From the IMG/VR virus record IMGVR_UViG_3300043410_001381, positions 1 to 59,967 of that record: a stretch of 59,967 nucleotides of DNA; one strand, 5' to 3'. The notes under the pieces were generated by a model. The model worked only from the letters and a program-made list of their open reading frames with translations, was not told where the DNA came from and searched no databases. Of this stretch, positions 9,239 through 55,051 are shown one piece after another. This DNA comes from a virus. Lineage: Duplodnaviria; Caudoviricetes. The position numbers and the translations under genes are program-made. Each line of letters opens with the position of its first letter. The stretch's first letter is position 1.

Positions 9239-9269
9239 TCATTTACCTTTTTAGTTTTAATTTAGCCTA

Positions 9270-40129: not shown

Positions 40130-40150
40130 TATCCTAATCCTAAATAGTTC

Positions 40151-40963
40151 TTATTTTAACATAGCTTCTCGGCTACGGTCAATGAATCTGGTTAACTCAC
40201 GATAGTACTCATCGTCTGCCATTTCACGCCCAGTTATTTTAAAACTAGACACACCCATATCAAGCAATCGTTTCATAGCATCTGGTTTAATGTCCATACA
40301 TTCGTATTTGCTATCCCTGCTAGGATCAAATTTTGGCAACCAACACTCTTCTACTTCTTTGCTATATGGTCTACCAGCAGTATTCTCATCGGCGATTGCC
40401 TTGAAATGTTGGTCCCAGTATTTGCAGCCCCAGATGCAAGTATCGTTTAACATTACTTCCCACTTTGAATGATCTAGCTCATTAGCACGTGGATCAAATA
40501 TGTGTTCAAATCTAGGAACAATCCAATCATACTTGCTCTCTAAATCCTTGTAGAAAGCAATATCGTTGTCTTGCATAGGTATGTTTGTTAAGCCCAACCC
40601 AGTAATACTGTAAATTAAATCATACTTGGGGAAGTTGTCACGCACGTATTGACGCAACTGGTCATTAACAATAATAAGTGCATTTCCTTCCCTGTGAAAC
40701 TTTTCTAGCAAGTCATTGCCAAGTGGATCAGTGAGGTCAATCTTATGATTGCTAAAAGTAAGTGCAATGCTTACACCCTTGTTATAATAGTATTCAATCA
40801 ACCCACTATTATAAAACACATCGCGGTTGATACGCCCGCCGTTCCAACGGCATTTGTTGATGCCATCGTATACAACAATTTGTGTATTATCAACTTTATT
40901 CAAACTTAAAAATTTGATAATTGGTAGCGATTTACTAAATGCGCCTGCTATTAAGTATCTCAT
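40151..40963 (-). CDS. U32-family-like Fe-S protein
   Basis: WNGGRINR, NDTCIWGC, EECW, FKITGRE. Confidence 0.65.
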   Translation of the reverse strand: MRYLIAGAFSKSLPIIKFLSLNKVDNTQIVVYDGINKCRWNGGRINRDVFYNSGLIEYYYNKGVSIALTFSNHKIDLTDPLGNDLLEKFHREGNALIIVNDQLRQYVRDNFPKYDLIYSITGLGLTNIPMQDNDIAFYKDLESKYDWIVPRFEHIFDPRANELDHSKWEVMLNDTCIWGCKYWDQHFKAIADENTAGRPYSKEVEECWLPKFDPSRDSKYECMDIKPDAMKRLLDMGVSSFKITGREMADDEYYRELTRFIDRSREAMLK

Positions 40964-41406
40964 TTCTTCTTCTTTAAAATATGATCTTCCATCGTTGATA
41001 ATACTAACCCACGTTTAATTGGGTTTAAATTTAATGTACCATAACGACTAAAATGCGTGTCTTTAATGCGGTCAAAGATATAATTTACTAATATCTTTTC
41101 CCTGTCCTTGTCTACACCAACGTATTTTATAATGTTATATGCTATTGCTAAATCACTGGTGTGTTGCTCAGTTTTATTCATAACATATTTTTCAAAGTCT
41201 TTATAGATGCGTTCTCTCTGACTTGCATGAAAATATGTTCTGTAATTTAATGCCATTTGTTTGAATACGTTGATGCCCATTTGCTTAACAATGTCGCGTC
41301 TATTTGCAACCAGATAATCAAACGATTCTTTGGCTGTTAAGTTACTTGTTTCAATGTAGTCTTCTAATAACTGGTTCACATTAAAAAGCATTTGTTTTTT
41401 GGACAA
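40960..41406 (-). CDS. Hypothetical protein
   Basis: ORF within coupled operon; start uncertain. Confidence 0.6.
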   Translation of the reverse strand: MSKKQMLFNVNQLLEDYIETSNLTAKESFDYLVANRRDIVKQMGINVFKQMALNYRTYFHASQRERIYKDFEKYVMNKTEQHTSDLAIAYNIIKYVGVDKDREKILVNYIFDRIKDTHFSRYGTLNLNPIKRGLVLSTMEDHILKKKK

Positions 41407-42131
41407 ATACCGTCAGTTTTAATTCTATAGCAACAATTATACAACTCTAAATTAGGACCGTAAAGGAAGTACTTGTCTTTGTATAGACATGGTTTACCTT
41501 TTGTGCTAAATGCAATGTTAGCCCATAGCTCTGACCTAGACTGTCCCAATCTCTTCTCATCTTCAAACTGTACAACTTTGTTAATGTTGGGGTCGTTTTT
41601 AAGTTGATTAAACTTGTGTAATATGTTGTCACTAACACCATCACCAAAGTCTGTAATAGGCGTCATGTATACATGCTTGCTACCAGTCATCTCTTTTACT
41701 TTGAAGTAATAGTAAAGCGCATTTTCTTGGCTATACATGATGTCGTATCTGCGTACATTGTTGTGTGGCGACTGAAAGACTTCGTTCATTTCGTCAATTG
41801 ACATCTCACTTGGGTGTATGCTTGCTTGCATTGTAAATGGCTGCTTAATACCCCTAATGACTTTTGCGCTGTAAGAGCTCAAGTTGGTCTGAATAACAAA
41901 TGGAACATTAAGCTCATTAAAACACTGTATGATATATTCAATATCTGGATGCACAAATGGCTCACCACCAAATACAAACACTTCTACGCCTGGGTACGTT
42001 TCCCCCAGCATCTTTACAAAGTTGCGTATAGTTTCTCTATCCAAGTTAGGATGGATACTTTTGTCCAAGTTAGTGCAATAGTTGCAACTATAATTGCACT
42101 TCATAGTTACTTCCCACTCAACTTGCATCAC
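41376..42131 (-). CDS. Radical SAM protein
   Basis: CNYSCNYC, GGEP; C-terminal Cys cluster. Confidence 0.92.
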   Translation of the reverse strand: MMQVEWEVTMKCNYSCNYCTNLDKSIHPNLDRETIRNFVKMLGETYPGVEVFVFGGEPFVHPDIEYIIQCFNELNVPFVIQTNLSSYSAKVIRGIKQPFTMQASIHPSEMSIDEMNEVFQSPHNNVRRYDIMYSQENALYYYFKVKEMTGSKHVYMTPITDFGDGVSDNILHKFNQLKNDPNINKVVQFEDEKRLGQSRSELWANIAFSTKGKPCLYKDKYFLYGPNLELYNCCYRIKTDGICPKNKCFLM

Positions 42132-43017
42132 GCACCTTTAATTGTTTTAGTAGTCCATCACAGTTGCATGAATTGTGTGGGCATGTCATTGGTACAGTGC
42201 TTGTAATGTCTTTAAAGAAGTCTGGATTCTCTAGTAAACTAGCTCTGCTGTTATCCAAGCAAAATTTAATAACTCTACCGTCAACATCAACTTCATAGTT
42301 GTTGTTATAGCAACTCCAGCCCTGGAAGTTAGTCAGCTTCTCTGAGAAGATTTCGTAATCATTCTTTAAATCTGTATCGTACACTAGTTCCTTTTCTCTA
42401 TCCTTTAAGAAAGCAAAGTATTCCCAGAAGTCTTTGCGATAGTGGAATAGTGTATGTACGTTCTTGCCGTAGATGAAATGCGGGTGTACTTTTACACCCA
42501 TTGCATCACACTTCTCAATCATGTCTTTAATTAATGGCCAATACTGCTTGCCGTGGTGTAGCATTACGTTGACCTTTACTTGCCAACCTTTATCATGTAC
42601 GTGTTTTAGGTTACGTAAGAACTTATTGACATCAGTACAATCAGCTGGATGGTAACTGAACAAGAATGCAAGACCTTTGTATTCAGGATGACTAGTTAAA
42701 TCGCGCTCTGCGTTAGTAACCACATATACTTTATTAAAGTTATCCATTGTTACCAAGTTGTCTAGCACATAGAAATAATGCGGGCTTAGTGTTGGCTCTC
42801 CACCCAATAGCCCTAGATTAAACGACAAGCTGGATCTACGCAATGATTCAATGACACCGTCTACCACATCACGCTTGCTTAACTTACCCCACTTCTCACC
42901 GTATTCGTTGCGAGCGTAACAGTATGAGCAGTTGAGTTGGCAAACCGTGAGCAAGTCCCAGTGTATATTAATATGATCTGGATCTTGATGTATATGGTGC
43001 TGTCTGCTGTAGTTCAT
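42118..43017 (-). CDS. Radical SAM protein
   Basis: CQLNCSYC, GGEPT; GWSC...FC...CPHNSCNC. Confidence 0.92.
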   Translation of the reverse strand: MNYSRQHHIHQDPDHINIHWDLLTVCQLNCSYCYARNEYGEKWGKLSKRDVVDGVIESLRRSSLSFNLGLLGGEPTLSPHYFYVLDNLVTMDNFNKVYVVTNAERDLTSHPEYKGLAFLFSYHPADCTDVNKFLRNLKHVHDKGWQVKVNVMLHHGKQYWPLIKDMIEKCDAMGVKVHPHFIYGKNVHTLFHYRKDFWEYFAFLKDREKELVYDTDLKNDYEIFSEKLTNFQGWSCYNNNYEVDVDGRVIKFCLDNSRASLLENPDFFKDITSTVPMTCPHNSCNCDGLLKQLKVRDAS

Positions 43018-44582
43018 TTTGTTTTGTAGAAGTTAATCAACCGTTTACTTGGGCACTGCTCTTGAGGGCATCGCTCAGTGACTACTAAATTCTGATGATT
43101 CAGCTGCAATGGCACTCGTCTACTAGTACACGTATTTTCTATATTACCATTCATTTGAATTTGGTAAGATTTTGGTGTACAGTTATAGCCCTTTAGCTTA
43201 TTTAATCCTGCAGATTCTATCTCGTAGTCTTTCAGATTCTCTATTGTTCCGTCAGTGTACACAACTGGAATATCTTTGAAGAAGTCGCGACCAGAACGAT
43301 TTTTACCAGTAGCTGACAGCAGTTCACCAAACTCTTTAAAAAAGTTATCGCCGTAGTTTGGTTTATAGTGCTTTGTGCGTGAAAGCAAACATGGTTTGTA
43401 TTTGACACCATGCTCACGTAATACGCTGATTAGCAATTTAGTCTGTTCCCAGAACTCAGCTCTATCTGATATAGTTACGTGTACTGAAAAATTCAAAGTA
43501 TCTTTTAGCGCAATGCATTTCTCAGTAAACTTGTCTGTAGCATATTCAGGGTGGTATGATGCAAATAGTGTAATCTTATTAGAACCAATTTGCACTAGCG
43601 GCTCATAAAAACTCACTGGTCTAGAATTATTTGTGAATATAGATATATCCTGCGAATTATTCATTGCACACAACTCTGATACAATCTCTACAATGTTAGG
43701 ATGCAGCGTTGGCTCACCCCCAGTAATACACATATTAAACTGATACGGCACTTGCTTTAATTTAGCCAGTGTAAACTTATATTGTGTAGTATGATTGTCT
43801 GTCTTAAAGTCAGTTGATAAGTCGTCAATTACTGGGCAATATGTACACTTGTAATTGCACCAGTTAGTTAATGGCCAATCGAAGAATATAGTATCATCAG
43901 ATTGGTCTCCCATGCTTTGTACTACTTTGTACTTTCGCATAAAATCCATTGACTTGGTCACTTCCACGGATGGATCAGTGTCGCTAAATGACACATTATC
44001 ACCACCATCTTTAGTTTGGTAGAAGAAAACTTTCTTGTGTGTCTGAATGCTATTACATCTACGCAACGAAAACATCATTAAGTTGATGTCGTTGTGTACG
44101 TTGTTGTCCATGGGAAAGTCAAACCCAGCGATAATATCACGTCTAAAGATAAACTGTGAAAGCTGGAGGTGCTCTAGATTCACTTGTTTGTAGAATTCGT
44201 CACGATCGTAATACAGCTGATCAATGTATTGCTTCAAGTACTCCATTGGATTCACGTCATACTTGGGATAGTAGTTACCTACAATCATGTCAGCTTGACG
44301 ATCCATTTCTAGGAAACCATTAGCCAAGTAATCGTCATCTTCTAAGAAGTAAACGTAGTAGCCAGATGCCCTGTTTAGTAGTGACTGATAAACTTGACTC
44401 ATGTTGTCAAATTTGTCGTAGTAATACGTTACTTGTGGGTGTGGAATCTCAGTAATATCGTTACTGTCATTGTTGACAATAATCTCCACGTCAGCAGGCA
44501 AATCCTTTAACACAGAATTTAAGCATCGTGTAAAAAGGTGTGGTCTGTTATGCGTTGGTATTAGTATGCTTAGTCCTGGCAT
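43014..44582 (-). CDS. GT2 glycosyltransferase-radical SAM fusion
   Basis: SILIPTHNR, FLEDDD; then CNYKCTYC, GGEPT. Confidence 0.9.
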   Translation of the reverse strand: MPGLSILIPTHNRPHLFTRCLNSVLKDLPADVEIIVNNDSNDITEIPHPQVTYYYDKFDNMSQVYQSLLNRASGYYVYFLEDDDYLANGFLEMDRQADMIVGNYYPKYDVNPMEYLKQYIDQLYYDRDEFYKQVNLEHLQLSQFIFRRDIIAGFDFPMDNNVHNDINLMMFSLRRCNSIQTHKKVFFYQTKDGGDNVSFSDTDPSVEVTKSMDFMRKYKVVQSMGDQSDDTIFFDWPLTNWCNYKCTYCPVIDDLSTDFKTDNHTTQYKFTLAKLKQVPYQFNMCITGGEPTLHPNIVEIVSELCAMNNSQDISIFTNNSRPVSFYEPLVQIGSNKITLFASYHPEYATDKFTEKCIALKDTLNFSVHVTISDRAEFWEQTKLLISVLREHGVKYKPCLLSRTKHYKPNYGDNFFKEFGELLSATGKNRSGRDFFKDIPVVYTDGTIENLKDYEIESAGLNKLKGYNCTPKSYQIQMNGNIENTCTSRRVPLQLNHQNLVVTERCPQEQCPSKRLINFYKTK

Positions 44583-45640
44583 CGATAAAAGTTCACTTGT
44601 TTAATTTTATCACCAGGTTCTGGAAATACAGGTGTTGAACCAGCAACTTCCTTTTCAACACCGTCACAGATGTAAAAGTGTTTGCATGTTAGACACGTTA
44701 ATTGCTTTTGGTAGAATCTATTACGATATGAATCACATGCATTGTATGCATTTTGTACTTTCTCTTCGTACGTGTATTGTTTGTCTACGTCTAAAACGTA
44801 GGTGTACATTTCTTTGTTCCAGTCACGCACGTCATAAATGTTCTGGAACGCACCAGATACATATTTCTCGTACCCTTTCATATAGCAGTAAGGTGTGTAG
44901 CGTACATTGATTTTAATCGCAGGATTCATCTTGTCTACACATGCCTTGATGGCATCTGTCATGTCTTTGTAACTGGCATTCTCAAACTCAATTACGTTGA
45001 AATCTCCCCAGTAGTTTAAACTGATGAAGTTTGCCTCTTCAGGCATAATTGAGTTGATTAACTCTGCGTGTATTGGTAACTCATGGTAGTTTCTGTAATA
45101 CACTGTTGTATTAGTGCGTACAATCATGCCTAGCTCTTGAGCATTGGCAATGCCCTTTAAGATGCGATCAAACGAGCCCTTGCGTCCCGTGATAGCATCG
45201 TGTACTTCTGCTGTGGCACCATGCAAGCTGAATAGTATCTCACGGAGGCCATGCTCGTATGATTCACGAGCAAAGTCCATATTGGCAAACTTGCCACCGT
45301 GGCTTAGGCAACTAATGCTAGTGAACTTGTCACGACAGTAGTCTAGTATTTTAAACCAGTCTGGGCTTACGCTACTTTCACCACCACTTAGATCAACTTC
45401 AGTAATTCCGTATTTTACCAAATAGTCAATACGTTCCTTGACAGTTTCCCATGGTGTTTTAACATCCAACTGATCCTTGTAATAACAGAACTCGCAATCG
45501 TAGTTACAAAACGTACCAGTGTCTAATCTAGCTCTGTTGCTTTTGGGTGTAACTAAATCAAGCTCAAGCCCAGCCACACTCATCTCATTGATTGACGTTT
45601 GTGCTTTGTTTCTAAATTGTACTGGGACTGCTTTAGTCAC
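44570..45640 (-). CDS. Radical SAM protein (HxsC-like C-terminus)
   Basis: CNYDCEFC, SGGE, PYC, CLTCKHFYICDG. Confidence 0.9.
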   Translation of the reverse strand: MTKAVPVQFRNKAQTSINEMSVAGLELDLVTPKSNRARLDTGTFCNYDCEFCYYKDQLDVKTPWETVKERIDYLVKYGITEVDLSGGESSVSPDWFKILDYCRDKFTSISCLSHGGKFANMDFARESYEHGLREILFSLHGATAEVHDAITGRKGSFDRILKGIANAQELGMIVRTNTTVYYRNYHELPIHAELINSIMPEEANFISLNYWGDFNVIEFENASYKDMTDAIKACVDKMNPAIKINVRYTPYCYMKGYEKYVSGAFQNIYDVRDWNKEMYTYVLDVDKQYTYEEKVQNAYNACDSYRNRFYQKQLTCLTCKHFYICDGVEKEVAGSTPVFPEPGDKIKQVNFYRCQD

Positions 45641-46565
45641 TGATATATTTCCTTACATAACTTACAAAGAAGTCATCCTTAGTTAGAAGCAAATCGTTTA
45701 CATCTTTCTCTATTGCTACCTGTCTGCATCGTACACCAGGATCAACATAGTCGATTTCATATATTACTTCTTTACCAAAAACAGCACACTCAACAATAAA
45801 ACGTGGACTGCAATCTGCTTTTAATGGCGTAGCTGTATATATGTAGGTGTCAAAGCAATCAAAAATATTATTGACTGGTGCCTTAACTATTGATACTTTA
45901 TCTGATGCAAGAGCTTCATATACATCAGTAAAATTTGTTACTATAGTATAACGTTCAAACGAGTGTTTGTCAATTAATAGTTGTATGTCTTCAACTGGCA
46001 AAGCTCTGCAATTTGTAGTTAGATAAAACATTGCAGTGTTAGTTTTGATACCTTTTGGTTGGATGTATTTTGTCCACAGTATCTTTTTAACGTAATCGAT
46101 AACTTCAATGTCTAACTCTTCAAAACGCTCAGGATACAAGTTGAAGTCCTGCATCAAGTGGGCACGTTTGATTGTCTTATGCCCGTGAAAGCGTTCAAAC
46201 TCTGTTTCGCTGCATCGTAGTAAGAATATGTTGTCAGTGTATATGATGCAACTTTTAAAGCGCCAGCTGCCGTCTACAACACAGATATTCTTTGCCATTA
46301 GGATACGTGGACTATCAACAGCATACGTATTGTCCATCATGTGATCCAACTCTGCATTAGTAAAACTGTATTTGTCAGTGACAGCTTTCTTTAACAACTC
46401 TTTTGATGTACCATCACTTAAGAATATAGCTGACTTGATTCCACTGGTTGAGCAAATGTAAAAATAGTCAATCATTTCGTACAAATGCCCGCTAATTCCA
46501 TGCGGGCATTCAAAAGACGAAGTGAAGACGAGATCGTAAGATTTTAAGTCAACAATTTTTGACAT
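45633..46565 (-). CDS. Hypothetical protein, possibly glycosyltransferase-like
   Basis: FDTYIYT...SPRFIVECAVFGKEV resembles GT-B C-terminal motif. Confidence 0.5.
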   Translation of the reverse strand: MSKIVDLKSYDLVFTSSFECPHGISGHLYEMIDYFYICSTSGIKSAIFLSDGTSKELLKKAVTDKYSFTNAELDHMMDNTYAVDSPRILMAKNICVVDGSWRFKSCIIYTDNIFLLRCSETEFERFHGHKTIKRAHLMQDFNLYPERFEELDIEVIDYVKKILWTKYIQPKGIKTNTAMFYLTTNCRALPVEDIQLLIDKHSFERYTIVTNFTDVYEALASDKVSIVKAPVNNIFDCFDTYIYTATPLKADCSPRFIVECAVFGKEVIYEIDYVDPGVRCRQVAIEKDVNDLLLTKDDFFVSYVRKYISD

Positions 46566-46568
46566 CTA

Positions 46569-47549
46569 TCATGCCTTTGGGGCCATGACTTCTGCTCTAG
46601 TCATTTTGCTATAACCTAATGCTCCAAAGATGTCTTTAGGTAGCTTGTCGCTTTGACCAGCTATACCTGCATCATCACAGAATTCGTGCCACAATGCTAG
46701 TCTATCGTCGCCAATAAGACCCAAGTTAAGATGGTCTACTTCAAACTCAGTAATCCAGTCGTTATATGGAGTGTGTTCTCTTGGTAGAGTGATATCAGTG
46801 CTATCAATAGTGATAGTTTCACCAGCAAGGATATCTTCAAATTTGATAGTTGTTACTTCATCAAATCGTTTTAGGTTTACACAGTTAACAGTACTCTGCA
46901 CAAGTTTCTTTTCATCAATTTGTGCGTTTAATGGTGCTTTTACTGCGTATACTTCAGGAGTGCGCTCATGTAACAATGCTACAACTGTAGGATTGCGGAT
47001 GATGTTAAACACCTGTACATTCTCTGCACCAATGTCTTTTTTAATTTCATCGATAAAGGTTTTACCAAAACTACCTGTAATAACGTGGATTGGGAACTTG
47101 CTATTTCTGTAATTGTTCAACACGTCATCGTATGTGTGTGGATGTAGCAATTGCTTTGGCTTTTCTTCCCACTCATAACCAGGCTCTGATCTGATACCAA
47201 AGTCGTTCTCAATGTCGGTGAAGAAATTTTGAAAGTGGTTATCCCTGACGCCTGTCAATAATATATCAGTATAATATTTCTCAGCTTCGTCTAGGATCTG
47301 ATGTCCGTGGTCATTCTTAATGCCTTCTTTGTCTTCATGAATTAGAAGAGTATTAACGCCAGGTTCAGTATCTGAGCCAGAACGATAAACAACTTCACCA
47401 GCTGGGTCATACACTTGATATGGATGAACTTTAAAGTCCATAGAATACCCGTCTGATAGATCAAATCTAGGAATTAGTTTTGAAAGAATATGCCTTGCAA
47501 AAAACTTCTTGTGAATTGTCTCAGCACCACTTAAAATTACTAACATCAA
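46569..47549 (-). CDS. Hypothetical protein (possible degenerate sulfotransferase/P-loop fold)
   Basis: NIIRNP and IKFEDI resemble sulfotransferase motifs. Confidence 0.5.
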   Translation of the reverse strand: MMLVILSGAETIHKKFFARHILSKLIPRFDLSDGYSMDFKVHPYQVYDPAGEVVYRSGSDTEPGVNTLLIHEDKEGIKNDHGHQILDEAEKYYTDILLTGVRDNHFQNFFTDIENDFGIRSEPGYEWEEKPKQLLHPHTYDDVLNNYRNSKFPIHVITGSFGKTFIDEIKKDIGAENVQVFNIIRNPTVVALLHERTPEVYAVKAPLNAQIDEKKLVQSTVNCVNLKRFDEVTTIKFEDILAGETITIDSTDITLPREHTPYNDWITEFEVDHLNLGLIGDDRLALWHEFCDDAGIAGQSDKLPKDIFGALGYSKMTRAEVMAPKA

Positions 47550-47948
47550 TTATCTCCTAAGATACGATTCCACGATTGAATTAACCGCAGCTTCATCATT
47601 TAGGTTACTTAACATACGTAACTTGTTAATGATATCACTGTACTCAGTTTTCTGAGATTCAATTACTTTGATACTGTCTCTTAATTCAATATATTTTTCT
47701 AAGTCATTGATTAAACTTTCATCACCTGACTCGATTATCTTGATGTAACCTTCTTCTTTGGTATCATCAGTGATAATAATTCCCTTGTTGAGAAATTTGT
47801 TATTGATCATGATATAAGAAACAAAATCAACTAATTTAAAAATTAGTAAATCGTCACCCATAACTCCACGTGCTTTAGTCTTAACTGCCATGGCAGCTTT
47901 GCCTGCATATGAACTTGCGTCAATACCTTCAATCTCTTTATAATCCAT
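47550..47948 (-). CDS. Hypothetical protein
   Basis: Coupled directly downstream of the Cys-repeat gene. Confidence 0.65.
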   Translation of the reverse strand: MDYKEIEGIDASSYAGKAAMAVKTKARGVMGDDLLIFKLVDFVSYIMINNKFLNKGIIITDDTKEEGYIKIIESGDESLINDLEKYIELRDSIKVIESQKTEYSDIINKLRMLSNLNDEAAVNSIVESYLRR

Positions 47949-47949
47949 T

Positions 47950-48648
47950 TTATGCCTCTGTCATGTTAACTGGTAATTGTGAATAGTCTACATAGTAGAA
48001 ACCATTCTTATCGAGTCCAAGTGCGGACTCATACTTGGTGCCAATTAACTCTTGAGCTAGTACACCAATGTATGTTTTTGCCTTATTCCAGATATATGAA
48101 TATGAATACACATTCAATCCATCTCTGGTTTCGACTAGTGTAATGTTTGCCTTCAATCTTTCATCGCTGTAGTTACAGTTACAAGTACATGAGTAGTTAC
48201 AGTTACAAGTACAGTAGTTACAATTACATGTGCAATAGTTACAGTTACAAGTACATACTTGACCAGCAGAAACGATTGACGAAATTAGGTTATTGATTGC
48301 GCTCGCAGTAATCAATGCACCTGCACCAACATCAGGTGGAACAGCAGGGGCTCCTACTTGTGGGTATGTGATAACATCAACAGTACCATTATTATTGTAA
48401 GCCTGTGTTGTTCCTGGACCTGCAACTGATAACAATGATGTAAATGTGTTATAGTCAAGGTGGTTAATTGGTGATGATAATGAGTATGGGTAGCTTGATG
48501 AACCGCGTCTAACTCGTTCAGAATTAATGTTATTCAATAATTCGTTGAACTTGTTAGCATTGATCATTCCGCCACTGCTTACTGCACCAATACTGTATGT
48601 TACAGCATTTGATGAGTTTGACCCATATACCCCTGTTCCTAATGCCAT
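47950..48648 (-). CDS. Cys-repeat fibre-like protein with C-terminal S74 intramolecular chaperone
   Basis: (CTCNCNY)x4 then SDERLKANI...GVLAQE...VDY; AGGAG SD. Confidence 0.85.
   Translation of the reverse strand: MALGTGVYGSNSSNAVTYSIGAVSSGGMINANKFNELLNNINSERVRRGSSSYPYSLSSPINHLDYNTFTSLLSVAGPGTTQAYNNNGTVDVITYPQVGAPAVPPDVGAGALITASAINNLISSIVSAGQVCTCNCNYCTCNCNYCTCNCNYSCTCNCNYSDERLKANITLVETRDGLNVYSYSYIWNKAKTYIGVLAQELIGTKYESALGLDKNGFYYVDYSQLPVNMTEA
48169..48255 (-). repeat. Four CTCNCNY coding repeats (12 Cys in 29 aa)
   Basis: About 21-nt unit GTAGTTACAGTTACAAGTACA on plus strand with synonymous variation. Confidence 0.95.
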
Positions 48649-48657
48649 GTTCGCTCC

Positions 48658-49026
48658 TTATATTGACTTAGATAAAAAGTCTAAATCACTCTTTGCTTTA
48701 TTTTGTGCAACAAACTTTTCATAGTCATCTAGATCAGATGTGATGAAATCCAGAGTATTTTGGTCTGGTGCTTTGTCGCTTTCAGTGTTATCGCCCTGCA
48801 TAGCTGCCATGACTAAGTCTTTGATTGAAACATTCAAAACTTTGGAAACTATCTCTAAGTGTTCTGAAATGTCAATGTCTTTTCTTGCACCGTTTTTAGA
48901 TACAGTGTCAATTAAGTTCAATGATAATCCGAACCCCTCTACTAAAATAGCTGCCATACCTGGATCTTCTGATTCGATCTCTTTGATGGTTTGTGCTATT
49001 AAGTTTAGTTTATCGATTACACTCAT
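48658..49026 (-). CDS. Hypothetical protein
   Basis: ORF between radical SAM gene and Cys-repeat gene. Confidence 0.65.
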   Translation of the reverse strand: MSVIDKLNLIAQTIKEIESEDPGMAAILVEGFGLSLNLIDTVSKNGARKDIDISEHLEIVSKVLNVSIKDLVMAAMQGDNTESDKAPDQNTLDFITSDLDDYEKFVAQNKAKSDLDFLSKSI

Positions 49027-49028
49027 TT

Positions 49029-49904
49029 TTATTCCTTTTCTTTAAAATCGTGAAATTTGGGGGCATTTTCATAGTTACCATACGTAGTGACATTGCCTTC
49101 GTCAGTAAAGTACGTTTTTAATTCTTTGCGTTCCCCGCATCCGTTGCACATATCGCAAAATAATTCGCATATAGGTGCTGATATAGCTTTATTTATCCAG
49201 TCTTTTCTGAACAGATTTTTTGCTGATTCCAGCTTTTCCATGTCACTGGTTTCAAGGGTGTCCCAAGCTACTGAAGTGATTACCCTTGTTGGCTTAAACG
49301 CCTTAATAATCATTGTAATGTCTTCGTAGTAATTGTCAATGTTCAGCTTCTGTATAGTATATCGTATTCTATACTTTAGACCATTTTTTAACAAGTTCTT
49401 AAACACTTGAAACATCAGTGGAGTTGAGTCTTTACCATTGTGTGTTACACGCTCAGTATTACCAACTCCATCAAAACTTATATCAATACTCAGGAAACCT
49501 CTCTGATAGAAGAAGTTGTTCTTAGTTTGATCAATAAAGTCTTGCTTTAAGTACCTGATACCATTTGTTGTTAAGTTGAAGTGGATATTCTTCTTTTTAC
49601 TGTATGCGTACTCCATACAATAGACTACGTTATCCCACTCCATTGTTGCTTCACCACCAAACAATACGATTAGTGTCTGCGAATCAGGAGATTCTCGTTC
49701 AATAATGGTATCAATACTCTTGCGAATATCTTCCTGCGTCATTATCTGCGGTGGGCGTCCAGGTAAGTCCTCATAGCAGTACGTACATGCTAGGTTACAT
49801 TTATTTGTAAAGTAAATTACGTTGACTCCTGAGCCAGCAGCAACTGGCTTGTCAGTTTTATCACCGACAAAGAAATCCATAAATGTGCCTGAAATTGATG
49901 TCAT
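49029..49904 (-). CDS. Radical SAM protein (peptide-maturase-like)
   Basis: CNLACTYC, FGGEAT, TTNG, ISFDG; CELFCDMCNGC. Confidence 0.92.
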   Translation of the reverse strand: MTSISGTFMDFFVGDKTDKPVAAGSGVNVIYFTNKCNLACTYCYEDLPGRPPQIMTQEDIRKSIDTIIERESPDSQTLIVLFGGEATMEWDNVVYCMEYAYSKKKNIHFNLTTNGIRYLKQDFIDQTKNNFFYQRGFLSIDISFDGVGNTERVTHNGKDSTPLMFQVFKNLLKNGLKYRIRYTIQKLNIDNYYEDITMIIKAFKPTRVITSVAWDTLETSDMEKLESAKNLFRKDWINKAISAPICELFCDMCNGCGERKELKTYFTDEGNVTTYGNYENAPKFHDFKEKE

Positions 49905-50218
49905 TGGATAATCATCTCATGCGAGTTTTTGTATCTATTCTCACGTGGGCGTGATTTTGCTTCCCTAATAACGTGTGACATATTTTCCAAGAAACGTGGG
50001 TAATCATACTTGTACTTAAACAAGTGACCGCGCTCGTCTAATTTAAAATTAACATACTCGTTATCAACTTTAGCTTTGCCCTTACGTGCTTCTTCAATTT
50101 GCTGTTGAAGCTCGTCCGTAGTTAACACACGATCGCTAATATGCTCTGCTGGAGCATACTCTACTTTAATTGGGTGAGCAATAATGCTCTTAAATGATTT
50201 CTTTTTTAGTTCCGACAT
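49901..50218 (-). CDS. Hypothetical protein
   Basis: ORF overlapping both neighbours. Confidence 0.6.
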   Translation of the reverse strand: MSELKKKSFKSIIAHPIKVEYAPAEHISDRVLTTDELQQQIEEARKGKAKVDNEYVNFKLDERGHLFKYKYDYPRFLENMSHVIREAKSRPRENRYKNSHEMIIQ

Positions 50219-51330
50219 TCTACACCCTCGCTTTCAACACCTACATTCTCAATGTAGTGCAAAATTAGATCCTGGAATACAGGAACATCACGGCATTCTT
50301 CTACCACACGCATTGCTTGCTCGTTTGTAATGTGGAAGAGTTCACAAATACTGTCCAGTGGCTTGTTGTCATTCATAACTTGGCTGTACGTACAACCTGC
50401 ATTACAAACTTGCTTTAAGTCACATGGTTGGCACTTGTCATAGTTCTCTGGCTTGAACATTTCTTGGTAGTACTTGAAGTCATACTCACTGTCCATCTTC
50501 ATGATCTTCTTACTTGCAAATCGAGCACATGGGTAAAACTCACCACTGCTCATTAATACACCACCGTTAGTACCAGCAAAGCATCCAAATGGTCGCTTGC
50601 CTTTAACAAGCCCATAGAGAATGTCTAAGATAGCTAGACGCAAGAAACCAACACTACATGGTATGCCTGCTTTAAGTTTGGCAATGTAGGTATCTGTCAA
50701 GCGAATAAGCTCTTTGCGATACTCAATGATATCATCACGTGTCCACACGTCATCACGCACAAGGCTAAAGTCAGGATGCTCAATGCCCCAGCTCAACAGG
50801 AACTCAAAGTTCTCTGTCATGTCTTTTACGTTACCAGGCCAAATCATTACTTTGCAACCGTTAGTTAAACCTGTAATGATATCCTTCTTGTAGTTGTACA
50901 TATCAAGGATACCATCAAATAACTCACCAGTCTCTGGGTTTGTATTCTCTAGTAATGGTAGTAATGGACGAGTCTCGTTACTGCTCATACCGTCAAACGA
51001 CCAAGACACGCCAACCCCGTTCTCTCTTAGATACTTGGCTTTCTCTTCATCAATCATTGTAAGGTTGGTAATAACACCAATACCCTTACACTTGGGATCT
51101 GCGCGAAGGATAGGAACAGCGTGTCTAATCAAGTCAAAGTTAAGCAGTGGCTCCCCACCAAAGAAGCTCACGTGGTACTCAGCATCACCACTTCGGTCCA
51201 TTAAGTTGTACAACTCTGGCAATGCATTATCAAATACTTCAGGGGTCATCCATGTTGGACGATTTGCCACGTAACAGTACGGGCACCCTAAGTTACATTT
51301 TTCTGTTACGCTTACTTCTAGAGTGAACAT
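50206..51330 (-). CDS. Radical SAM/SPASM protein
   Basis: CNLGCPYC, FFGGEPLL; GCFAG...YPC...CQPCDLKQVCNAGC...C. Confidence 0.93.
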   Translation of the reverse strand: MFTLEVSVTEKCNLGCPYCYVANRPTWMTPEVFDNALPELYNLMDRSGDAEYHVSFFGGEPLLNFDLIRHAVPILRADPKCKGIGVITNLTMIDEEKAKYLRENGVGVSWSFDGMSSNETRPLLPLLENTNPETGELFDGILDMYNYKKDIITGLTNGCKVMIWPGNVKDMTENFEFLLSWGIEHPDFSLVRDDVWTRDDIIEYRKELIRLTDTYIAKLKAGIPCSVGFLRLAILDILYGLVKGKRPFGCFAGTNGGVLMSSGEFYPCARFASKKIMKMDSEYDFKYYQEMFKPENYDKCQPCDLKQVCNAGCTYSQVMNDNKPLDSICELFHITNEQAMRVVEECRDVPVFQDLILHYIENVGVESEGVECRN

Positions 51331-52424
51331 TGTTCCGCCTCAAATTTAATAACTGGCTTCTTGTATGACTTTAATGCAACACGCAATGCATGGTGAACAA
51401 CCTCATTGGTTTTAAACACTTTACACACTTGCCAGTTGGATGTGTGGTCACTCCACTTTTCCAAATACGTTTCTTTCTCTGATTTCTCATAAGTGGCAGC
51501 ATTACACTTCATGCAGAATTGGCTGTCACAGTTTAAGCAATCAAGTGGTTGATTCTTTAATGCGCCCTTGTACATTTCAGTACGCTCTTGTACGAGCTTG
51601 TCTAAATCAGCTTCTTTAAAGATGTTGCCCATAACGTGGGCATGGCTTTCTTTATACATACAGCCGTGACATGGACTAATATCACCGTTTAAGTCAACGC
51701 TGATGTAGTTGATGCCTGCTGCACACAATGCACGACTTTGTTGGAACCATCCAAACTTCTCTGGTGGTAAACCATTCTTGTAGATGTACTTGGCAATCTT
51801 AGTTAAGCCTTCTTTTAACACTTCTAGTCTAGGCATAAACTCTTCTTCAGTTAACTGACTATACATATCTGGTGTTGGGAAATAGTTATCGTCCATTTCA
51901 ATAACATCTAAGAACGCTTCGTAAATTTTATCAAAGTGTTCAGCTGTTAATACAGACTTCATTCTGACATTAAGTCCAGCTTTCTTGGCAGCGATGTAGT
52001 TGCTCTTGACTAGACTAGAGCTAGGATTTCCTGCTTTGTCGATACGTGTGATGTCGTTTACTGGCTTACCATCATAGCTTACTTGGATGCTCAAACGACC
52101 TGGCATTGCTTCATGGAATGCAACTAAGTCGTGCATGTACTTCTTTAAGTACACACCGTTTGTATAGAAGAAGAAACTGTAGTTAGGATTGTCTTTAAAC
52201 TTATCCATAACACCACGGCAGAATTCGTAGTTAACGAATGGCTCACCGCCCCAAAAGTAGATATCACGTTTTGGATCGTCGAACTTAGTCATGAACTCGT
52301 CAATGTTATCAAGCGTAACTTCTGTGTTTTCTTCGTATGCTGTTGATAAGCCACATTCAAAGCCTTCTGAGCAATATGTACATGCTAAATTACATGTACT
52401 CGTTACGTTTAAATCAATTACCAT
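51318..52424 (-). CDS. Radical SAM/SPASM protein
   Basis: CNLACTYC, WGGEP; CAAG...SPCHGC...CLNCDSQFCMKC...C. Confidence 0.93.
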   Translation of the reverse strand: MVIDLNVTSTCNLACTYCSEGFECGLSTAYEENTEVTLDNIDEFMTKFDDPKRDIYFWGGEPFVNYEFCRGVMDKFKDNPNYSFFFYTNGVYLKKYMHDLVAFHEAMPGRLSIQVSYDGKPVNDITRIDKAGNPSSSLVKSNYIAAKKAGLNVRMKSVLTAEHFDKIYEAFLDVIEMDDNYFPTPDMYSQLTEEEFMPRLEVLKEGLTKIAKYIYKNGLPPEKFGWFQQSRALCAAGINYISVDLNGDISPCHGCMYKESHAHVMGNIFKEADLDKLVQERTEMYKGALKNQPLDCLNCDSQFCMKCNAATYEKSEKETYLEKWSDHTSNWQVCKVFKTNEVVHHALRVALKSYKKPVIKFEAEQCSL

Positions 52425-52432
52425 ATGAATCC

Positions 52433-53176
52433 TTATTTGGTTGCTCTATACTTATCATTTAGCTGAAGTACAGTTTTTAGCAATTCTACGTCATACTCGT
52501 TTACGAGTGCTTCTGTGTCTTTTGGCAAGCAAGGTCCACCGAACCCACGATGTCCATCTGGTCCAGGAACAGCAAAATGGTGAGTTCCCATCCATGGCTG
52601 CATTTTGAATATCTCAGTCATTTCGGTGTAGTTTGCACCAACATCGTTAGCCAAGTCGTACATTGCATTCATGAACGTTACTTTGGTTGCATAGAAGCTA
52701 TTCATAGCATACTTTGATAGACTAGCTGTTTTGATATCAGTAAACTTCACACAGTCCATTTTAACATGAGATTGTGTTCTATAAATGTCTGCAAGACGCT
52801 CTGCTTTATCCCGGTCCCCACCAATTAGCACAAATGGTGGATTTACAAAGTCATCCAATGATGTTGCTCTGCTTAAAAATTCTGGGTTATACAATACATC
52901 GTATTTTTCTATATACTGTGGCAGCACTGTGCTCTTTACTACTGTGATTCCATCGTAGTTCATGTCTTTAATGGTATCAAGTACGTTGGTTAGCACTACA
53001 TAGTTGTTGCCATCAGTTGGTGTTGGCACACAAACGAAAATGGCATCTGGTTTGGCACGGCAAACATCTTCAACAGTCAAAGTGTTGTGCTGTGGATCAG
53101 AAATGATTGATTCGGTTTTTGCAAAACCGTATCTAACCGCCTTTCCCACCATCCCGTAGCCAATAATACCAATCAT
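52433..53176 (-). CDS. UDP-glucose/GDP-mannose dehydrogenase family (lacks C-terminal domain)
   Basis: GYGMVG, VCVPTP, KSTV, NPEFL, GFGGPCLPKD. Confidence 0.9.
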   Translation of the reverse strand: MIGIIGYGMVGKAVRYGFAKTESIISDPQHNTLTVEDVCRAKPDAIFVCVPTPTDGNNYVVLTNVLDTIKDMNYDGITVVKSTVLPQYIEKYDVLYNPEFLSRATSLDDFVNPPFVLIGGDRDKAERLADIYRTQSHVKMDCVKFTDIKTASLSKYAMNSFYATKVTFMNAMYDLANDVGANYTEMTEIFKMQPWMGTHHFAVPGPDGHRGFGGPCLPKDTEALVNEYDVELLKTVLQLNDKYRATK

Positions 53177-53197
53177 AGAAACATCCTGAAATAAGTA

Positions 53198-53225
53198 ATT
53201 ATAACAAACACGACGGGAAAGTCAA
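53198..53225 (-). promoter_or_regulatory. sigma70-type promoter at head of modification operon
   Basis: TTGACT-16-TATAAT. Confidence 0.65.
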
Positions 53226-53229
53226 ATAT

Positions 53230-54426
53230 ATGATAGACAAACAACCATTTACTAAGTTAATTCAAAATTTAAAGGATTCCGGAAAGTATAGGGTTTTTAA
53301 TGACATTTTGAGAGAAAACGGAAAGTTTCCAAATGCTATTTGGTACGGGCCATACAATATTAAAAATATTGTAAATTGGTGTAGTAACGACTATTTGGGA
53401 ATGGGTCAGCACAAAGTTGTGCTAGACGCGATGCATACAGCATTAGACATGACTGGTGCAGGATCTGGTGGTACTCGTAACATTGCGGGTACTAGCCATT
53501 ATCACGTAGCACTAGAACATGAGCTTGCTACATTGCATAAGAAAGAAAAAGCATTGCTATTCAGCTCTGCGTATGTTGCAAATGAATGGAGTTTGATCGC
53601 TTTAGCTAAGATCATTCCAGATATTCACTTTGTTAGTGATAGTAAGAACCACAATAGTATGATTGTAGGTATGAGTCACAGCAAGGCTAGCAAAACTGTC
53701 TTTAGACACAATGACTTAGAGAATCTAGAAGAGATTTTGAAATCGGTTACAATGGCTAAAGAAACTCCTTGCATTGTTTTTGAATCAGTGTATAGTATGG
53801 ATGGTGATGTAAGTTTGCTTGAAGAGATTTGTGATTTGGCAGACAAATATGGTGCAATTACCTACTTAGATGAAGTACATGCGGTAGGACTATACGGTGA
53901 CACAGGCGGTGGTAAGTCAGAGAAATATGGCTTACAAGACAGGATCGATATAATCAACGGAACCCTGGGCAAGGCGTATGGTGTCCAAGGCGGCTACATT
54001 GCTGCCGATGCAGAGGTAATTGATGCTATTCGTAGCGTTGCTGCGGGCTTTATCTTTACAACAAGTATGAGTCCAGTGACGTGTGCTGGTGCATTGGCTG
54101 CTGTAAAATATTTGAAAGACCACAATGATTTGCGTGAAGCACATCAAGAACGTGCTCGCAAATTAAAATACAGAATGCACAAGGCTGGTATACCTGTTAT
54201 GGAAAGCACAACTCACATCGTTCCTGTTTTAGTAGGTGATGCCAAACGTGCCAAGGCAATGAGTGATGCACTCTTAAATGACCATGGCATTTATGTACAG
54301 GCCATCAACTACCCAACAGTTTCAGTTGGTACTGAACGTTTACGTTTTGCACCAACACCATTACATGATGACGGGATGATTGAAGATCTAATCTCGGCAC
54401 TTAAAATAGTTTTTGCAAAGTATTAA
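53230..54426 (+). CDS. hemA: 5-aminolevulinate synthase
   Basis: [39 protein letters not shown]. Confidence 0.95.
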
Positions 54427-54427
54427 T

Positions 54428-55051
54428 ATGACAACAATTTACGCACACCAGTTTGATAGCCCAGGATACATTACTGCTATGTTACCTGATGACATTCTTG
54501 CCAAATTAAGGGAAGAAACTGAAAAGATTAAAGAAGCAAATTATACAGGATACAAGAATGTTGACGAGCAATTAGCTGGCCATTTAAAGTATCAATTTGA
54601 TTTGCCACAATGCAGAGATACTCTAAAGAACTTTGTATTAGGTATGGTTGGTGAATACGAAAGATCGTTTAGATACTTACGTGACTTGAAACAAGACAAG
54701 CAATTGGATCTTGTGCAACTATGGATTAACTTCCAAAAGAAGCATGACTTTAATCCAGTACACAATCACAATGGCGTGATGTCATTTGTTATATGGCTTA
54801 AAATCCCTTATGACATTGAAACAGAAATGACTGTGTACAAAGGTGCTGGTAGTGAAACGAACTGCACTAGTATGTTTGAATTTGTGTACACTGACTCGAT
54901 TGGCAATATCTGTAACAAGCCAGTGCCAGTTAATAAGAATTGGGAAGGGGTTATTTGTATGTTCCCAGCTAGAATGAAACACTGTGTTCAGCCATTCTTT
55001 ACGTCAGACGACTTTAGAATTTCAATTGCTGGGAATATAGATTTTATTTAG
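54428..55051 (+). CDS. 2OG-Fe(II) oxygenase-like protein
   Basis: WINFQ, NPVHNH, FPARMKH, RISIAGN. Confidence 0.8.
   Translation: MTTIYAHQFDSPGYITAMLPDDILAKLREETEKIKEANYTGYKNVDEQLAGHLKYQFDLPQCRDTLKNFVLGMVGEYERSFRYLRDLKQDKQLDLVQLWINFQKKHDFNPVHNHNGVMSFVIWLKIPYDIETEMTVYKGAGSETNCTSMFEFVYTDSIGNICNKPVPVNKNWEGVICMFPARMKHCVQPFFTSDDFRISIAGNIDFI

Follow-up and report, generated by a model that had tools for sequence, protein, structure and literature searches.

Sequence comparisons point to an undescribed, possibly enzyme-stapled Cys-repeat protein in T4-like phages

The SPASM radical SAM enzyme QhpD works on a protein subunit, not on a released peptide, and forms Cys thioethers within that chain; the needle of T4 gp37, with its HxH iron sites, carries a short repeated metal-ligand motif near the end of a trimeric fibre. 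The intramolecular chaperone auto-processing (ICA, Peptidase_S74) domain normally follows a trimeric beta-structure whose folding it assists. In the ranthipeptide/SCIFF systems PapB-PapA (freyrasin) and CteB-CteA, a SPASM enzyme is encoded beside a ribosomal product with a repeated Cys motif, and PapB is described as making links from Cys to a residue C-terminal of it, from i+1 to i+7, in a crosslinking chemistry so far restricted to acidic acceptors (PMC12373016). ICA domains are known from trimeric phage fibres and spikes, require a Ser/Lys catalytic pair and cleave in dependence on trimerisation (PMC11058221). Timms et al. 2010 report 11-12 radical SAM genes of unknown role in the Campylobacter group II phages (PMC2853527).

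The locus described here lies in a stretch of 59,967 nucleotides of viral DNA (the window), and it places radical SAM genes, a Cys-repeat protein gene (fib) and an ICA domain in one run of genes. We found no published description of such a fib/radical SAM system. The features are listed below in order of the run, operon head first.

52433-53225, minus strand: UDP-glucose dehydrogenase-like gene at the operon head (Pfam UDPG_MGDP_dh), with a promoter match (53198-53225) upstream of it
51318-52424, minus strand: rS_51318, radical SAM/SPASM enzyme of 368 aa (Pfam Radical_SAM, Fer4_12, SPASM)
50206-51330, minus strand: rS_50206, radical SAM/SPASM enzyme of 374 aa (Pfam Radical_SAM)
49901-50218, minus strand: p105, small ORF of 105 aa between radical SAM genes, assigned to no family, conserved in closer relatives
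49029-49904, minus strand: rS_49029, short radical SAM enzyme of 291 aa (Radical_SAM, Fer4_12) with a 4-Cys C-terminal motif
48658-49026, minus strand: p122, small acidic helical ORF of 122 aa directly upstream of fib, assigned to no family, kept in closer relatives
47950-48648, minus strand: fib, Cys-repeat protein of 232 aa (N-domain, (CxCxCNY)4 array, S74/ICA tail)
48244-48618, minus strand: N-terminal folded domain of fib, residues 11-135, with an ERxRRG motif in which R47-R48 are invariant, and with IxAxxINxLI helices
48169-48255, minus strand: Cys heptad array of fib, residues 132-160 (CTCNCNY three times, S, CTCNCNY), the proposed modified core
47953-48168, minus strand: ICA (Peptidase_S74) domain of fib, residues 161-232, with an S161/K166 dyad
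47550-47948, minus strand: p132, helical-bundle protein of 132 aa (phrog_25260, function unknown), the most constant downstream neighbour of fib
43014-47549, minus strand: downstream cassette of p326, p310 (phrog_24441), a radical SAM gene (44570-45640) and a GT2-radical SAM fusion (43014-44582)

Between 52424 and 43014, neighbouring genes either overlap or are separated by 0-9 nt, a spacing that would suit a single coupled operon. Homologues of p105 occupy the same position in thirteen related loci, and in 31 of 41 loci fib has a p132 homologue no more than 500 bp away; the AF2 model of p132 is all-helical (pLDDT 91.9) and finds no match in the PDB. The p122 protein has no detectable homology (hhalign probability 1.7%) to the small helical ORFs found at the analogous place in distant loci. 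The order of p326, p310, the radical SAM gene and the GT2 fusion is the same in twenty loci, and p310-like, rS_44570-like and GT-like genes also occur within 10 kb in five others.

Translation of the 232-aa ORF bears out the preliminary description of a (CTCNCNY)x4 array with 12 Cys: residues 132-160 read CTCNCNY three times, then S, then CTCNCNY, with GQV preceding and SDERLK following. A six-frame scan of the window for C.C.C.[YFHW] arrays of at least two heptads returns the fib array only, and the shuffle control gives arrays in 0 of 100 shuffles. The four 21-nt units, of which units 3 and 4 are identical at the nucleotide level, have 4 differing positions, all synonymous (TAT/TAC, TGC/TGT, ACA/ACT, AAT/AAC). 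Across the family (801 heptads, 156 distinct proteins), Cys occupies C1, C3 and C5 throughout (100%), Asn makes up 76% of position 4 and 94% of position 6, and Tyr makes up 94% of position 7. The heptad repeat is under strong purifying selection, in line with the selection previously read from the synonymous variation, and the array is extremely conserved while the remainder of the protein diverges. Variation at positions 4 and 6 is limited to N/D/Q/E/A and at position 7 to Y/H/F/W, as expected for donor and acceptor residues. In the AF2 monomer, residues 136-159 fall below pLDDT 50 between two confident flanking domains, and residues 11-135 form a compact domain of helices (31-47, 63-73, 115-129) and a hairpin (81-95) at pLDDT > 90. 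The N-terminus, which had been described as fibre-like, is thus modelled as globular; its R47 and R48 are invariant in the homologue alignment, and a comparison with PDB folds gives no match at E 0.001 or better.

The linkage of fib with radical SAM/SPASM genes is real and specific, and it is seen in both search directions. In an IMG/VR search seeded with fib, a homologue of at least one window enzyme lies within 2.4 kb in 40 of 41 loci (29 of 30 counted by distinct fib sets), the sole exception, L034, starting at a contig end; homologues that commonly lack radical SAM neighbours, the pattern that the preliminary description had set against its own proposal, are therefore not what is found. 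Within 5 kb of fib all three enzyme types are present in 34 loci, two in 3 and one in 3. An enzyme of the rS_49029 type lies no more than 5 kb from fib in 35 of the 41, and the rS_51318 type, the one most often directly beside the repeat protein in distant loci, directly adjoins fib in thirteen. In the search seeded with rS_50206, matches of at least 32% identity define 35 loci, and 28 of these have a CxCxCx[YFH] array. Among the seven without one, L052 retains a 71-aa fib remnant, L062, L068, L082 and L113 are contig edges or partial matches, and L072 and L073 have fib elsewhere on the same contig (at L028 and L041, respectively). Where the match does not exceed 31% identity (43 loci), the array pattern appears in none; inspection by eye shows a diverged CTCNVD array at one of these, L075. 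Gene order is changed in three loci, where fib stands upstream of the enzymes and the repeat is CPCNCNF, and a minimal core of SPASM enzymes, fib and p132, with no adjacent GT, is found in three distant ones (L011, L025 and L071). As in RiPP systems, a precursor-like gene with a Cys-rich core lies beside maturase genes and is conserved in this arrangement across relatives.

All three enzymes carry the CxxxCxxC radical SAM motif and match the Radical_SAM profile, and Pfam and NCBIfam find no domains in them besides radical SAM/SPASM. In the case of rS_51318, the CxxxCxxC motif and seven SPASM Cys (C234, C252, C296, C299, C304, C307 and C334) are invariant in 23 orthologues, the TIGR04085 SPASM model scores 32.1 bits against a cut-off of 27, and this is the only one of the three with a Pfam SPASM match (E 1e-4). 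In the case of rS_50206, the radical SAM residues C12, C16 and C19 and a 7-Cys SPASM set (C250, C268, C300, C303, C309, C313 and C329) are invariant in 14 orthologues; SPASM is assigned there by this pattern, Pfam SPASM giving no match at E 0.01 or better. The rS_49029 enzyme has four C-terminal Cys only and not the full set, in keeping with the earlier count of three radical SAM genes upstream of fib, two of them with full SPASM Cys. The best NCBIfam match for all three is the PapB ranthipeptide maturase model (NF047865 equivalog), with 126.9 bits for rS_50206 (E 9.5e-37 over residues 4-319), 85.2 for rS_49029 and 77.3 for rS_51318 against a cut-off of 340, and the peptide-maturase models among their best matches are PapB, nif11, QhpD, SCIFF, CcpM and YhhB. 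No NCBIfam equivalog cut-off is reached by any of the three, which by these scores are relatives, not members, of the PapB family. The likeness to QhpD-QhpC is of the same kind, TIGR03906 being among the best matches of all three (E 1e-15 to 1e-20), but the scores fall far short of the 453-bit cut-off, the locus has no amine dehydrogenase context, and the proposed substrate, fib, is a repeat array. Compared with ranthipeptide systems, the fib cassette is phage-encoded, its enzymes score far below the equivalog cut-offs and no RRE is found; fib itself is not a short leader-core peptide but a protein of 232 aa whose N-domain of 125 aa is folded and which ends in an ICA tail, and its candidate acceptors are mainly Asn instead of Asp/Glu, with three Cys per 7 residues.

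Linkage in both directions, its persistence in rearranged loci, the maturase best matches, the conservation of the array, its low confidence in the AF2 model and the presence of tandem fib paralogues together suggest that the two or three radical SAM/SPASM enzymes encoded by these T4-like phages have, on balance, fib as their dedicated substrate. We put the probability of this reading, in which the enzymes introduce crosslinks into the Cys array of a phage protein that forms trimers, at roughly 0.55. While the array is still unfolded, before assembly or in the course of it, the enzymes would join its residues by covalent crosslinks, the likeliest being Cys thioethers to side-chain carbons of Asn/Asp at positions 4 and 6 (C1-x-x-N4 and C3-x-x-N6), with a possible third link per heptad involving the aromatic residue or Thr. 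The CxxN spacing fits the i+1 to i+7 range of PapB, yet the Asn-rich positions 4 and 6, set beside acidic PapB acceptors, count against the crosslinking reading, and thioether chemistry on the array is in our estimate doubtful. Also counting against this reading are the sub-equivalog enzyme scores, an N-domain with neither a fibre-like nor a known fold, and the negative Pfam and NCBIfam searches for an RRE or other leader-binding domain in the three enzymes, p105 and p122.

The same array could instead bind metal or form disulfide bonds in the core of a trimeric fibre, with three-Cys layers along the axis and no covalent modification by the radical SAM enzymes, which would be engaged elsewhere in the island, in sugar or cofactor chemistry for instance; we consider this improbable. 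The CxC spacing would put C1, C3 and C5 on one strand face, and the ICA domain, the usual companion of trimeric beta-structure, is present; however, a strict 7-residue period would flip the Cys face at each repeat of an extended strand, and positions 4, 6 and 7 (N/D, N, aromatic) are also strongly conserved, where a metal site would need only Cys. In T4 gp37 the corresponding ligands are His and radical SAM partners are absent. Some family members do have extra Cys/His-rich N-terminal motifs (for example MACxGH...C..H), and the window does hold many other radical SAM and sugar genes, but a metal or disulfide core would leave unexplained both the PapB-like SPASM enzymes that stay beside fib despite gene-order changes and enzyme identities of 30-88%, and the absence of the array at loci with other SPASM enzymes.

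The S74 assignment made in the preliminary description holds by profile, by residues and by fold. Pfam Peptidase_S74 (PF13884) matches residues 161-202 with 25.7 bits (cut-off 22, E 1.4e-5), and S161, D162, R164 and K166, which include an S-x4-K pair at the start of the domain, are invariant across 105 aligned homologues. The fold has 5 matches in BFVD at E 0.001 or better (probability 1.00, rmsd 1.1-3.1 Å over 65-76 columns), of which the best are ICA-domain proteins (1.1-2 Å over 65-76 columns); the named matches are ICA-domain proteins and one LysM-domain protein, and proteins of the tail, tail fibre and neck appendage are among the matches. The PHROG structural matches of fib cover the S74 part only, and neither phmmer nor profile searches match the tail to solved CIMCD sequences. 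The fib protein thus shares with endosialidases and phage tail fibres and spikes a C-terminal Ser/Lys-dyad domain, the Pfam match and the fold, but what precedes the domain is the Cys heptad array and not a known triple beta-helix or spike. Nor is the domain a generally built-in part of the system, as had been supposed: among the best 150 cluster representatives it is fused in 28, reduced to a stub of about 12 aa in 55 and absent in 47, and in many relatives the form is split, with a 12-aa stub on the substrate and S74 as a separate, stand-alone ORF. We know of no description of this stub and stand-alone ICA arrangement. In homologues that lack the tail, the last residues are precisely ...CNCNY or ...CNCNYS, as would be left if the tail were cut away at S161, and it is rather probable that the fused form trimerises and cleaves itself.

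In the crosslinking reading, the ICA domain would then trimerise the fib chains and cleave itself off at S161, so that a trimeric, fibre-like phage protein would end, at its C-terminus, in the crosslinked array. A trimeric structural protein is favoured by the retention of ICA, fused or as a stub with a separate ORF, and by the Gly_rich_2 domain, typical of phage tail fibres, that lies N-terminal of the array in longer relatives. A location of fib in the virion is still only slightly less than an even prospect, and more tentative again is the picture of an appendage tip in widespread T4-like phages built as a ladder of radical-SAM crosslinks, up to three per CTCNCNY heptad. If it is correct, this would be the first RiPP-type maturation of a phage structural protein, with a self-cleaving, trimerising chaperone as the follower, fused or in trans.

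Alternatively, the modified protein may not be a virion part at all but a RiPP-like or proteusin-like product that acts within the infected cell or outside it, whether to take over the host, to compete with other phages or to evade defences; the N-domain would then be a large leader, and ICA or Hint modules would be self-removing followers. We regard this as unlikely. The best sigma-70-like promoter match stands at the operon head (53198-53225, TTGACT-16-TATAAT with TG, 11 of 12 matches), in an operon region whose total of promoter-like sites is not above chance, and near fib there is no TATAAATA, the T4 late promoter motif. That the only strong promoter-like site is sigma-70-like is unexpected for a late structural gene, which counts against the crosslinking reading as well, and the cassette lies among enzyme genes behind it, away from the recognisable structural genes of the window. 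The modelled globular N-domain without a known fold and the tandem paralogues (up to four, in L010 and L006), which resemble multi-precursor RiPP clusters, would also suit such a product, as would the self-cleaving Hint-like modules after the array in 4 of 25 longer homologues. Against it, ICA domains are known from trimeric fibres and spikes (PMC11058221), the BFVD matches include tail fibre proteins, Gly_rich_2 precedes the array in relatives, the Campylobacter homologue is located among tail genes, and no export gene or leader protease gene was noticed, nor an evident signal peptide.

The cassette is embedded in a larger island with GT2, sugar-nucleotide enzymes, a sulfotransferase and at least five further radical SAM genes, and the linkage could in part belong to the island as a whole, which again counts against the crosslinking reading. 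Those radical SAM genes and the sugar-nucleotide set share the operon with fib, and had been overlooked in the preliminary description. It is conceivable, though very unlikely, that the array is a glycosylation target, through Cys S-glycosylation by the island GT2 or N-glycosylation at N-Y-C/N-Y-S, with the radical SAM enzymes tailoring sugars: N6-Y7-C1' reads as N-x-C and the last repeat gives N-Y-S, GT2 domains, a UDP-glucose dehydrogenase, epimerase/dehydratases, a PIG-L deacetylase and a sulfotransferase are encoded in the same operon, and distant loci again have GT2-like genes no more than 10 kb away. The minimal core found in three loci dispenses with an adjacent GT, however, and the three enzymes resemble peptide maturases, not sugar-modifying radical SAM families.

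The fib family comprises 214 clusters at 50% identity, with 3 to 28 heptads per chain, carried by T4-like phages of about 200 kb from freshwater and other metagenomes and by the cultured Campylobacter phages CP220, CPt10 and CP21. A homologue of rS_50206, 36% identical, occurs in 15 Campylobacter phage records, and the group II phages CP220, CPt10, CP21 and IBB_35 share both this homologue and a CxCxCNY protein; compared with fib of the window, the Campylobacter protein lacks the ICA motif and has a 200-aa Cys-rich C-terminal extension, and the enzymes are dispersed. The accessible text of published Campylobacter phage papers yielded no connection of the radical SAM enzymes to the CP21_105-type protein. 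The 534-aa CP21_105 has six CxCxCNY heptads and a rS_51318-like gene about 2.3 kb away, and it is annotated as a 'putative N-acetylneuraminate pyruvate lyase'.

The Cys-repeat protein, fib, is encoded on the same strand as three radical SAM genes, which lie upstream of it with ends overlapping or nearly abutting, and between these genes are two small ORFs, p105 and p122, the cassette being arranged as follows.

51318-52424, minus strand: rS_51318, radical SAM gene with CxxxCxxC and the SPASM-type seven Cys
50206-51330, minus strand: rS_50206, radical SAM gene with CxxxCxxC and the SPASM-type seven Cys
49901-50218, minus strand: p105, small ORF
49029-49904, minus strand: rS_49029, shorter radical SAM gene with CxxxCxxC and four C-terminal Cys only
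48658-49026, minus strand: p122, small ORF
47950-48648, minus strand: fib, ORF of 232 aa
47550-47948, minus strand: p132, ORF downstream of fib

Residues 132-160 of fib consist of three CTCNCNY heptads, a Ser, and a fourth CTCNCNY, together containing 12 Cys, and SDERLK follows immediately after Y160, as the preliminary description had read this ORF; its claim that the repeat varies synonymously also holds, with every one of the four variable positions among the four DNA units being synonymous. The array is unique within the window when all six frames are scanned, and no such heptad array arose in 100 shuffles. In an AlphaFold2 model built on an alignment of 105 sequences (A2), the N-domain (residues 11-135) is compact with pLDDT above 90, containing helices at 31-47, 63-73, and 115-129 and a hairpin at 81-95, and it does not look like a fibre, which counts against a fibre reading and departs from the fibre-like N-terminus proposed earlier. 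The array coincides with a stretch, residues 136-159, where pLDDT is below 50, and the C-terminal domain is again confident. This domain had been assigned to S74, and the assignment is borne out by a Pfam Peptidase_S74 match at residues 161-202 over the curated cut-off, by the invariance of S161, D162, R164, and K166 in the 105 aligned homologues, and by superposition of the modeled S74 part on predicted viral "intramolecular chaperone auto-processing" (ICA) domains with probability 1.00 and rmsd 1.1-3.1 Å (five matches at E 0.001 or better). When the modeled fib was compared with PDB structures by Foldseek, there was no match at E 0.001 or better and no relative of the N-domain, and PDB sequence searches, whether by the fib family profile or by the S74 region, gave non-significant matches only, the N-domain weakly matching the Emb/Ebh helical repeat (E-value 0.49).

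A large protein collection holds 648 fib relatives at E 0.001 or better, and an exhaustive search with residues 1-160 gave 214 clusters at 50% identity, 116 of them at E 1e-10 or better. Each of the 156 distinct sequences examined contains at least three adjacent heptads, four being the commonest number and 28 the maximum. Across 801 heptads, positions 1, 3, and 5 are Cys without exception, T occupies position 2 in 79%, position 4 is N (76%), D (18%), or Q (4%), position 6 is N in 94%, and position 7 is Y (94%) or H (4%), with F and W rare. Five related records each contain a T4-type major capsid gene, and three of them are complete genomes spanning 202-214 kb. In a set of 185,579 species genomes, matches were limited to four MAG contigs, with the enzymes alongside in three; the cassette has no megablast match in GenBank phages, and tblastn of fib against phages matched the S74 part only, in Brucella and Microcystis phages. 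Tandem fib paralogues occur at two loci, four copies in L010 (8045-10609) and three in L006 (9404-11461), where the N-domains differ and the arrays are nearly identical, and in L006 only the middle copy carries a full S74 tail. Distant members (L025:9896-10966, L037:9401-10276, L075:10430-10897, and the protein P0121) have an N-terminal Cys/His-rich motif, MACxGH...C..H...C..H, and some members of this kind reach 83-90 Cys in about 350 aa.

For each of the three enzymes, NCBIfam ranks the PapB ranthipeptide maturase model first (E 9.5e-37, 4.7e-24, and 1.2e-21), followed by other Cys-peptide maturases and QhpD, and the cyclophane-forming relatives YhhB and AmcB are also among the matches. All scores are far under the equivalog cut-offs, and the three enzymes are therefore, by sequence, relatives of peptide maturases that fall outside any named family. 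The seven further Cys in SPASM arrangement are invariant in 23 orthologues of rS_51318 and 14 of rS_50206, in agreement with the earlier observation of three upstream radical SAM genes, two with full SPASM Cys sets. Pfam and NCBIfam scans of the enzymes, p105, and p122 did not find an RRE, a result that counts against the proposed modification of the array.

The linkage between fib and the SPASM enzymes is specific, runs in both directions, and is kept through a change of gene order. A fib-seeded search of IMG/VR gave 41 loci, whose ORFs were called and compared with the window proteins; in 40 of them a homologue of one or more of the three enzymes lies within 2.4 kb of fib, which answers the co-occurrence check suggested in the preliminary description, and once loci that share an identical repeat protein are merged the figure becomes 29 of 30. 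The only miss, L034, starts at a contig end without upstream DNA. Within 5 kb of fib, all three enzyme types are found in 34 loci, two in three, and one in three. For the reverse search of IMG/VR, an alignment of 50206-type enzymes was the query because rS_50206 alone retrieved just four close loci, and it gave 78 loci, which were scanned for heptad arrays. Among the 35 with a 50206-type enzyme at 32% identity or more, many being contigs already in the fib-seeded search, 28 have an array on the same strand within about 4 kb, and 8 of the 13 contigs new to this search have one. The seven array-less loci comprise one with a fib remnant (L052), four that are partial or at a contig edge (L062, L068, L082, and L113), and two, L072 and L073, with the repeat protein elsewhere on the same contig (L028 and L041, respectively). 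The other 43 loci, whose SPASM enzymes are more distantly related (31% identity or less), all failed to match the array pattern; one of them, L075, has a diverged CTCNVD array between rS_51318-like and p132-like genes. In L059, L061, and L063 the gene order is changed, with fib upstream of the enzymes and a CPCNCNF heptad. The 71-aa remnant of L052 (10665-10880) sits in an otherwise intact cassette of a close relative and could reflect deletion or assembly collapse of the repeat.

In 31 of the 41 loci a p132 homologue lies downstream of fib, no more than 500 bp away; the p132 model is a confident helical bundle that had no match in the PDB by Foldseek. Homology of p122 to the small helical ORFs found in distant loci was rejected, hhalign giving a probability of 1.7%. 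The idea that the three enzymes each serve one of the three heptad Cys is weakened by loci with the same 3-Cys heptad and two enzyme types, either within 5 kb (L011 and L032) or detected (L071).

The Campylobacter phages CP220, CPt10, CP21, and relatives encode a 50206-type enzyme at 36% identity and, among their tail genes, a 534-aa protein with six heptads, about 2.3 kb from a 51318-type gene. In CP21 (locus L042) the heptad protein is CP21_105 (8992-10596), which is annotated as "putative N-acetylneuraminate pyruvate lyase" and is actually a Cys-heptad protein; its 534-aa homologue P0127 contains no Pfam family. The 51318-type gene is two annotated ORFs in CP21 (CP21_110/111, L042:12846-14016) and a single ORF in the CPt10 record (L028:13121-14290). 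The sections available to us of Timms et al. (2010, PMC2853527) give 11-12 radical SAM genes without a known role in these phages, and the present proposal, if true, would supply the first concrete role for some of them, in CP220-type phages that can be cultured and so allow the idea to be tested directly.

The region C-terminal to the array is variable. Among the best 150 of the 214 cluster representatives, 28 carry S74 fused as a tail, like the window protein, 55 have only an 8-20-aa tail retaining S-D-x3-K, 47 stop 0-7 residues after the last heptad (some maybe cut by contig ends), and 20 have other forms. In short-tail loci fib ends about 12 aa past S-D-x3-K, and directly downstream is a separate ORF of 90-100 aa that matches a profile of the S74 remainder (window residues 173-232) with E 2e-9 to 1.7e-3; such ORFs are as follows.

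L011:10561-10842, L031:10489-10788, L032:10394-10705, L035:10563-10838: S74-remainder ORFs directly downstream of fib
L040:10504-10800, L122:8606-8890, L125:2751-3050: S74-remainder ORFs directly downstream of fib

An ORF of this type is located elsewhere in L034 and L039, and in L010 a similar one (E above 0.01) follows the last of the four tandem copies, its ATG overlapping the stop codon. The split S74/ICA domain looks like an intramolecular chaperone that has turned trans-acting, and if so, this arrangement, in which the substrate keeps a catalytic stub and a coupled ORF supplies the remainder, would inform the evolution of trans-acting intramolecular chaperones. Tail-less forms terminate at ...CNCNY or ...CNCNYS, which is the predicted cleavage point. 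In the tail-less variants L015-L023 (about 10540-11000), an ORF of roughly 150 aa with hydrophobic stretches stands between fib and p132 in place of the ICA remainder. Of 25 longer homologues, four (P0130, P0131, P0139, and P0141) have directly after the array a module starting with C[FI][LA][AP]GT.V, which we take to be a Hint/intein-like motif; Pfam Hint_2 matches P0131 only, just under cut-off. This module looks like a second, unrelated self-cleaving domain at the position of S74. Two other longer homologues have a Gly_rich_2 domain before the array.

That the array is the substrate of the PapB-like SPASM enzymes, a reading to which we assign a probability of roughly 0.55, is suggested by its linkage to them, which is specific, runs both ways, and withstands gene rearrangement; by its disorder in the model; and by its conservation pattern (invariant Cys triad, Asx/Glx at positions 4 and 6, aromatic at 7). 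Less confidence attaches to the chemistry and to the virion location than to the enzyme-substrate relation. As described in the portion of the source available to us, the residue that PapB joins to a Cys is acidic and lies one to seven positions further toward the C-terminus (i+1 to i+7; PMC12373016). Links of the form C1-x-x-N4 and C3-x-x-N6 would have a spacing within PapB geometry. The acceptors in the fib array would be mostly Asn, in contrast to the acidic residues used by PapB. We know of no demonstration of Asn as an acceptor for PapB itself. Given the matches to YhhB and AmcB, a crosslink through the aromatic residue of the heptad is possible. The ICA domain, whether fused or split, suggests that the chains would trimerise and that the tail would be removed at S161; the extracts at hand of a study of ICA domains make self-cleavage dependent on trimerisation (PMC11058221). 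A trimer of this kind could instead bind metal through its Cys, the alternative put forward in the preliminary description, which we regard as rather unlikely.

A SPASM enzyme paired with a Cys-repeat substrate is a known kind of system; the way this substrate is built, its phage setting, and its ICA follower, whether fused or split, are not known from elsewhere, and full-text literature searches returned no account of fib proteins or of radical SAM enzymes modifying structural proteins of phages. If the enzymes modify the array, phages apply RiPP chemistry to their own proteins, and the array would represent a new class of radical SAM/SPASM substrate, a protein-sized precursor with three Cys per seven residues and Asn-rich acceptors, as well as a new route to harden or functionalise a phage appendage. 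For peptide engineers, the heptad array and its enzymes might offer a dense, repeatable crosslinking module.

Several features of the surroundings count against the proposal. The operon's only strong promoter-like site is sigma-70-like, a promoter-motif scan found no T4 late motif near fib, and the cassette belongs to a long operon that also carries sugar-nucleotide, GT2, sulfotransferase, halogenase-like, and further radical SAM genes, which include the following.

44570-45640, minus strand: radical SAM gene
43014-44582, minus strand: radical SAM-GT2 fusion
42118-43017, minus strand: radical SAM gene
41376-42131, minus strand: radical SAM gene
39056-40129, minus strand: radical SAM gene

Judged by predicted gene content, 39056-45640 and 30272-37033 are a large modification island, with at least five radical SAM genes besides the three of the cassette, a 2OG-Fe oxygenase, transketolase-like pieces, a sulfotransferase, two epimerase/dehydratases, and a PIG-L deacetylase. 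The window also contains two tryptophan-halogenase-family genes (7772-9238 and 34223-35536; phrog_2928, Pfam Trp_halogenase), and at 53230-55051 two genes are transcribed divergently from the operon, one with a class I/II aminotransferase fold (398 aa) and the other a 212-aa ORF.
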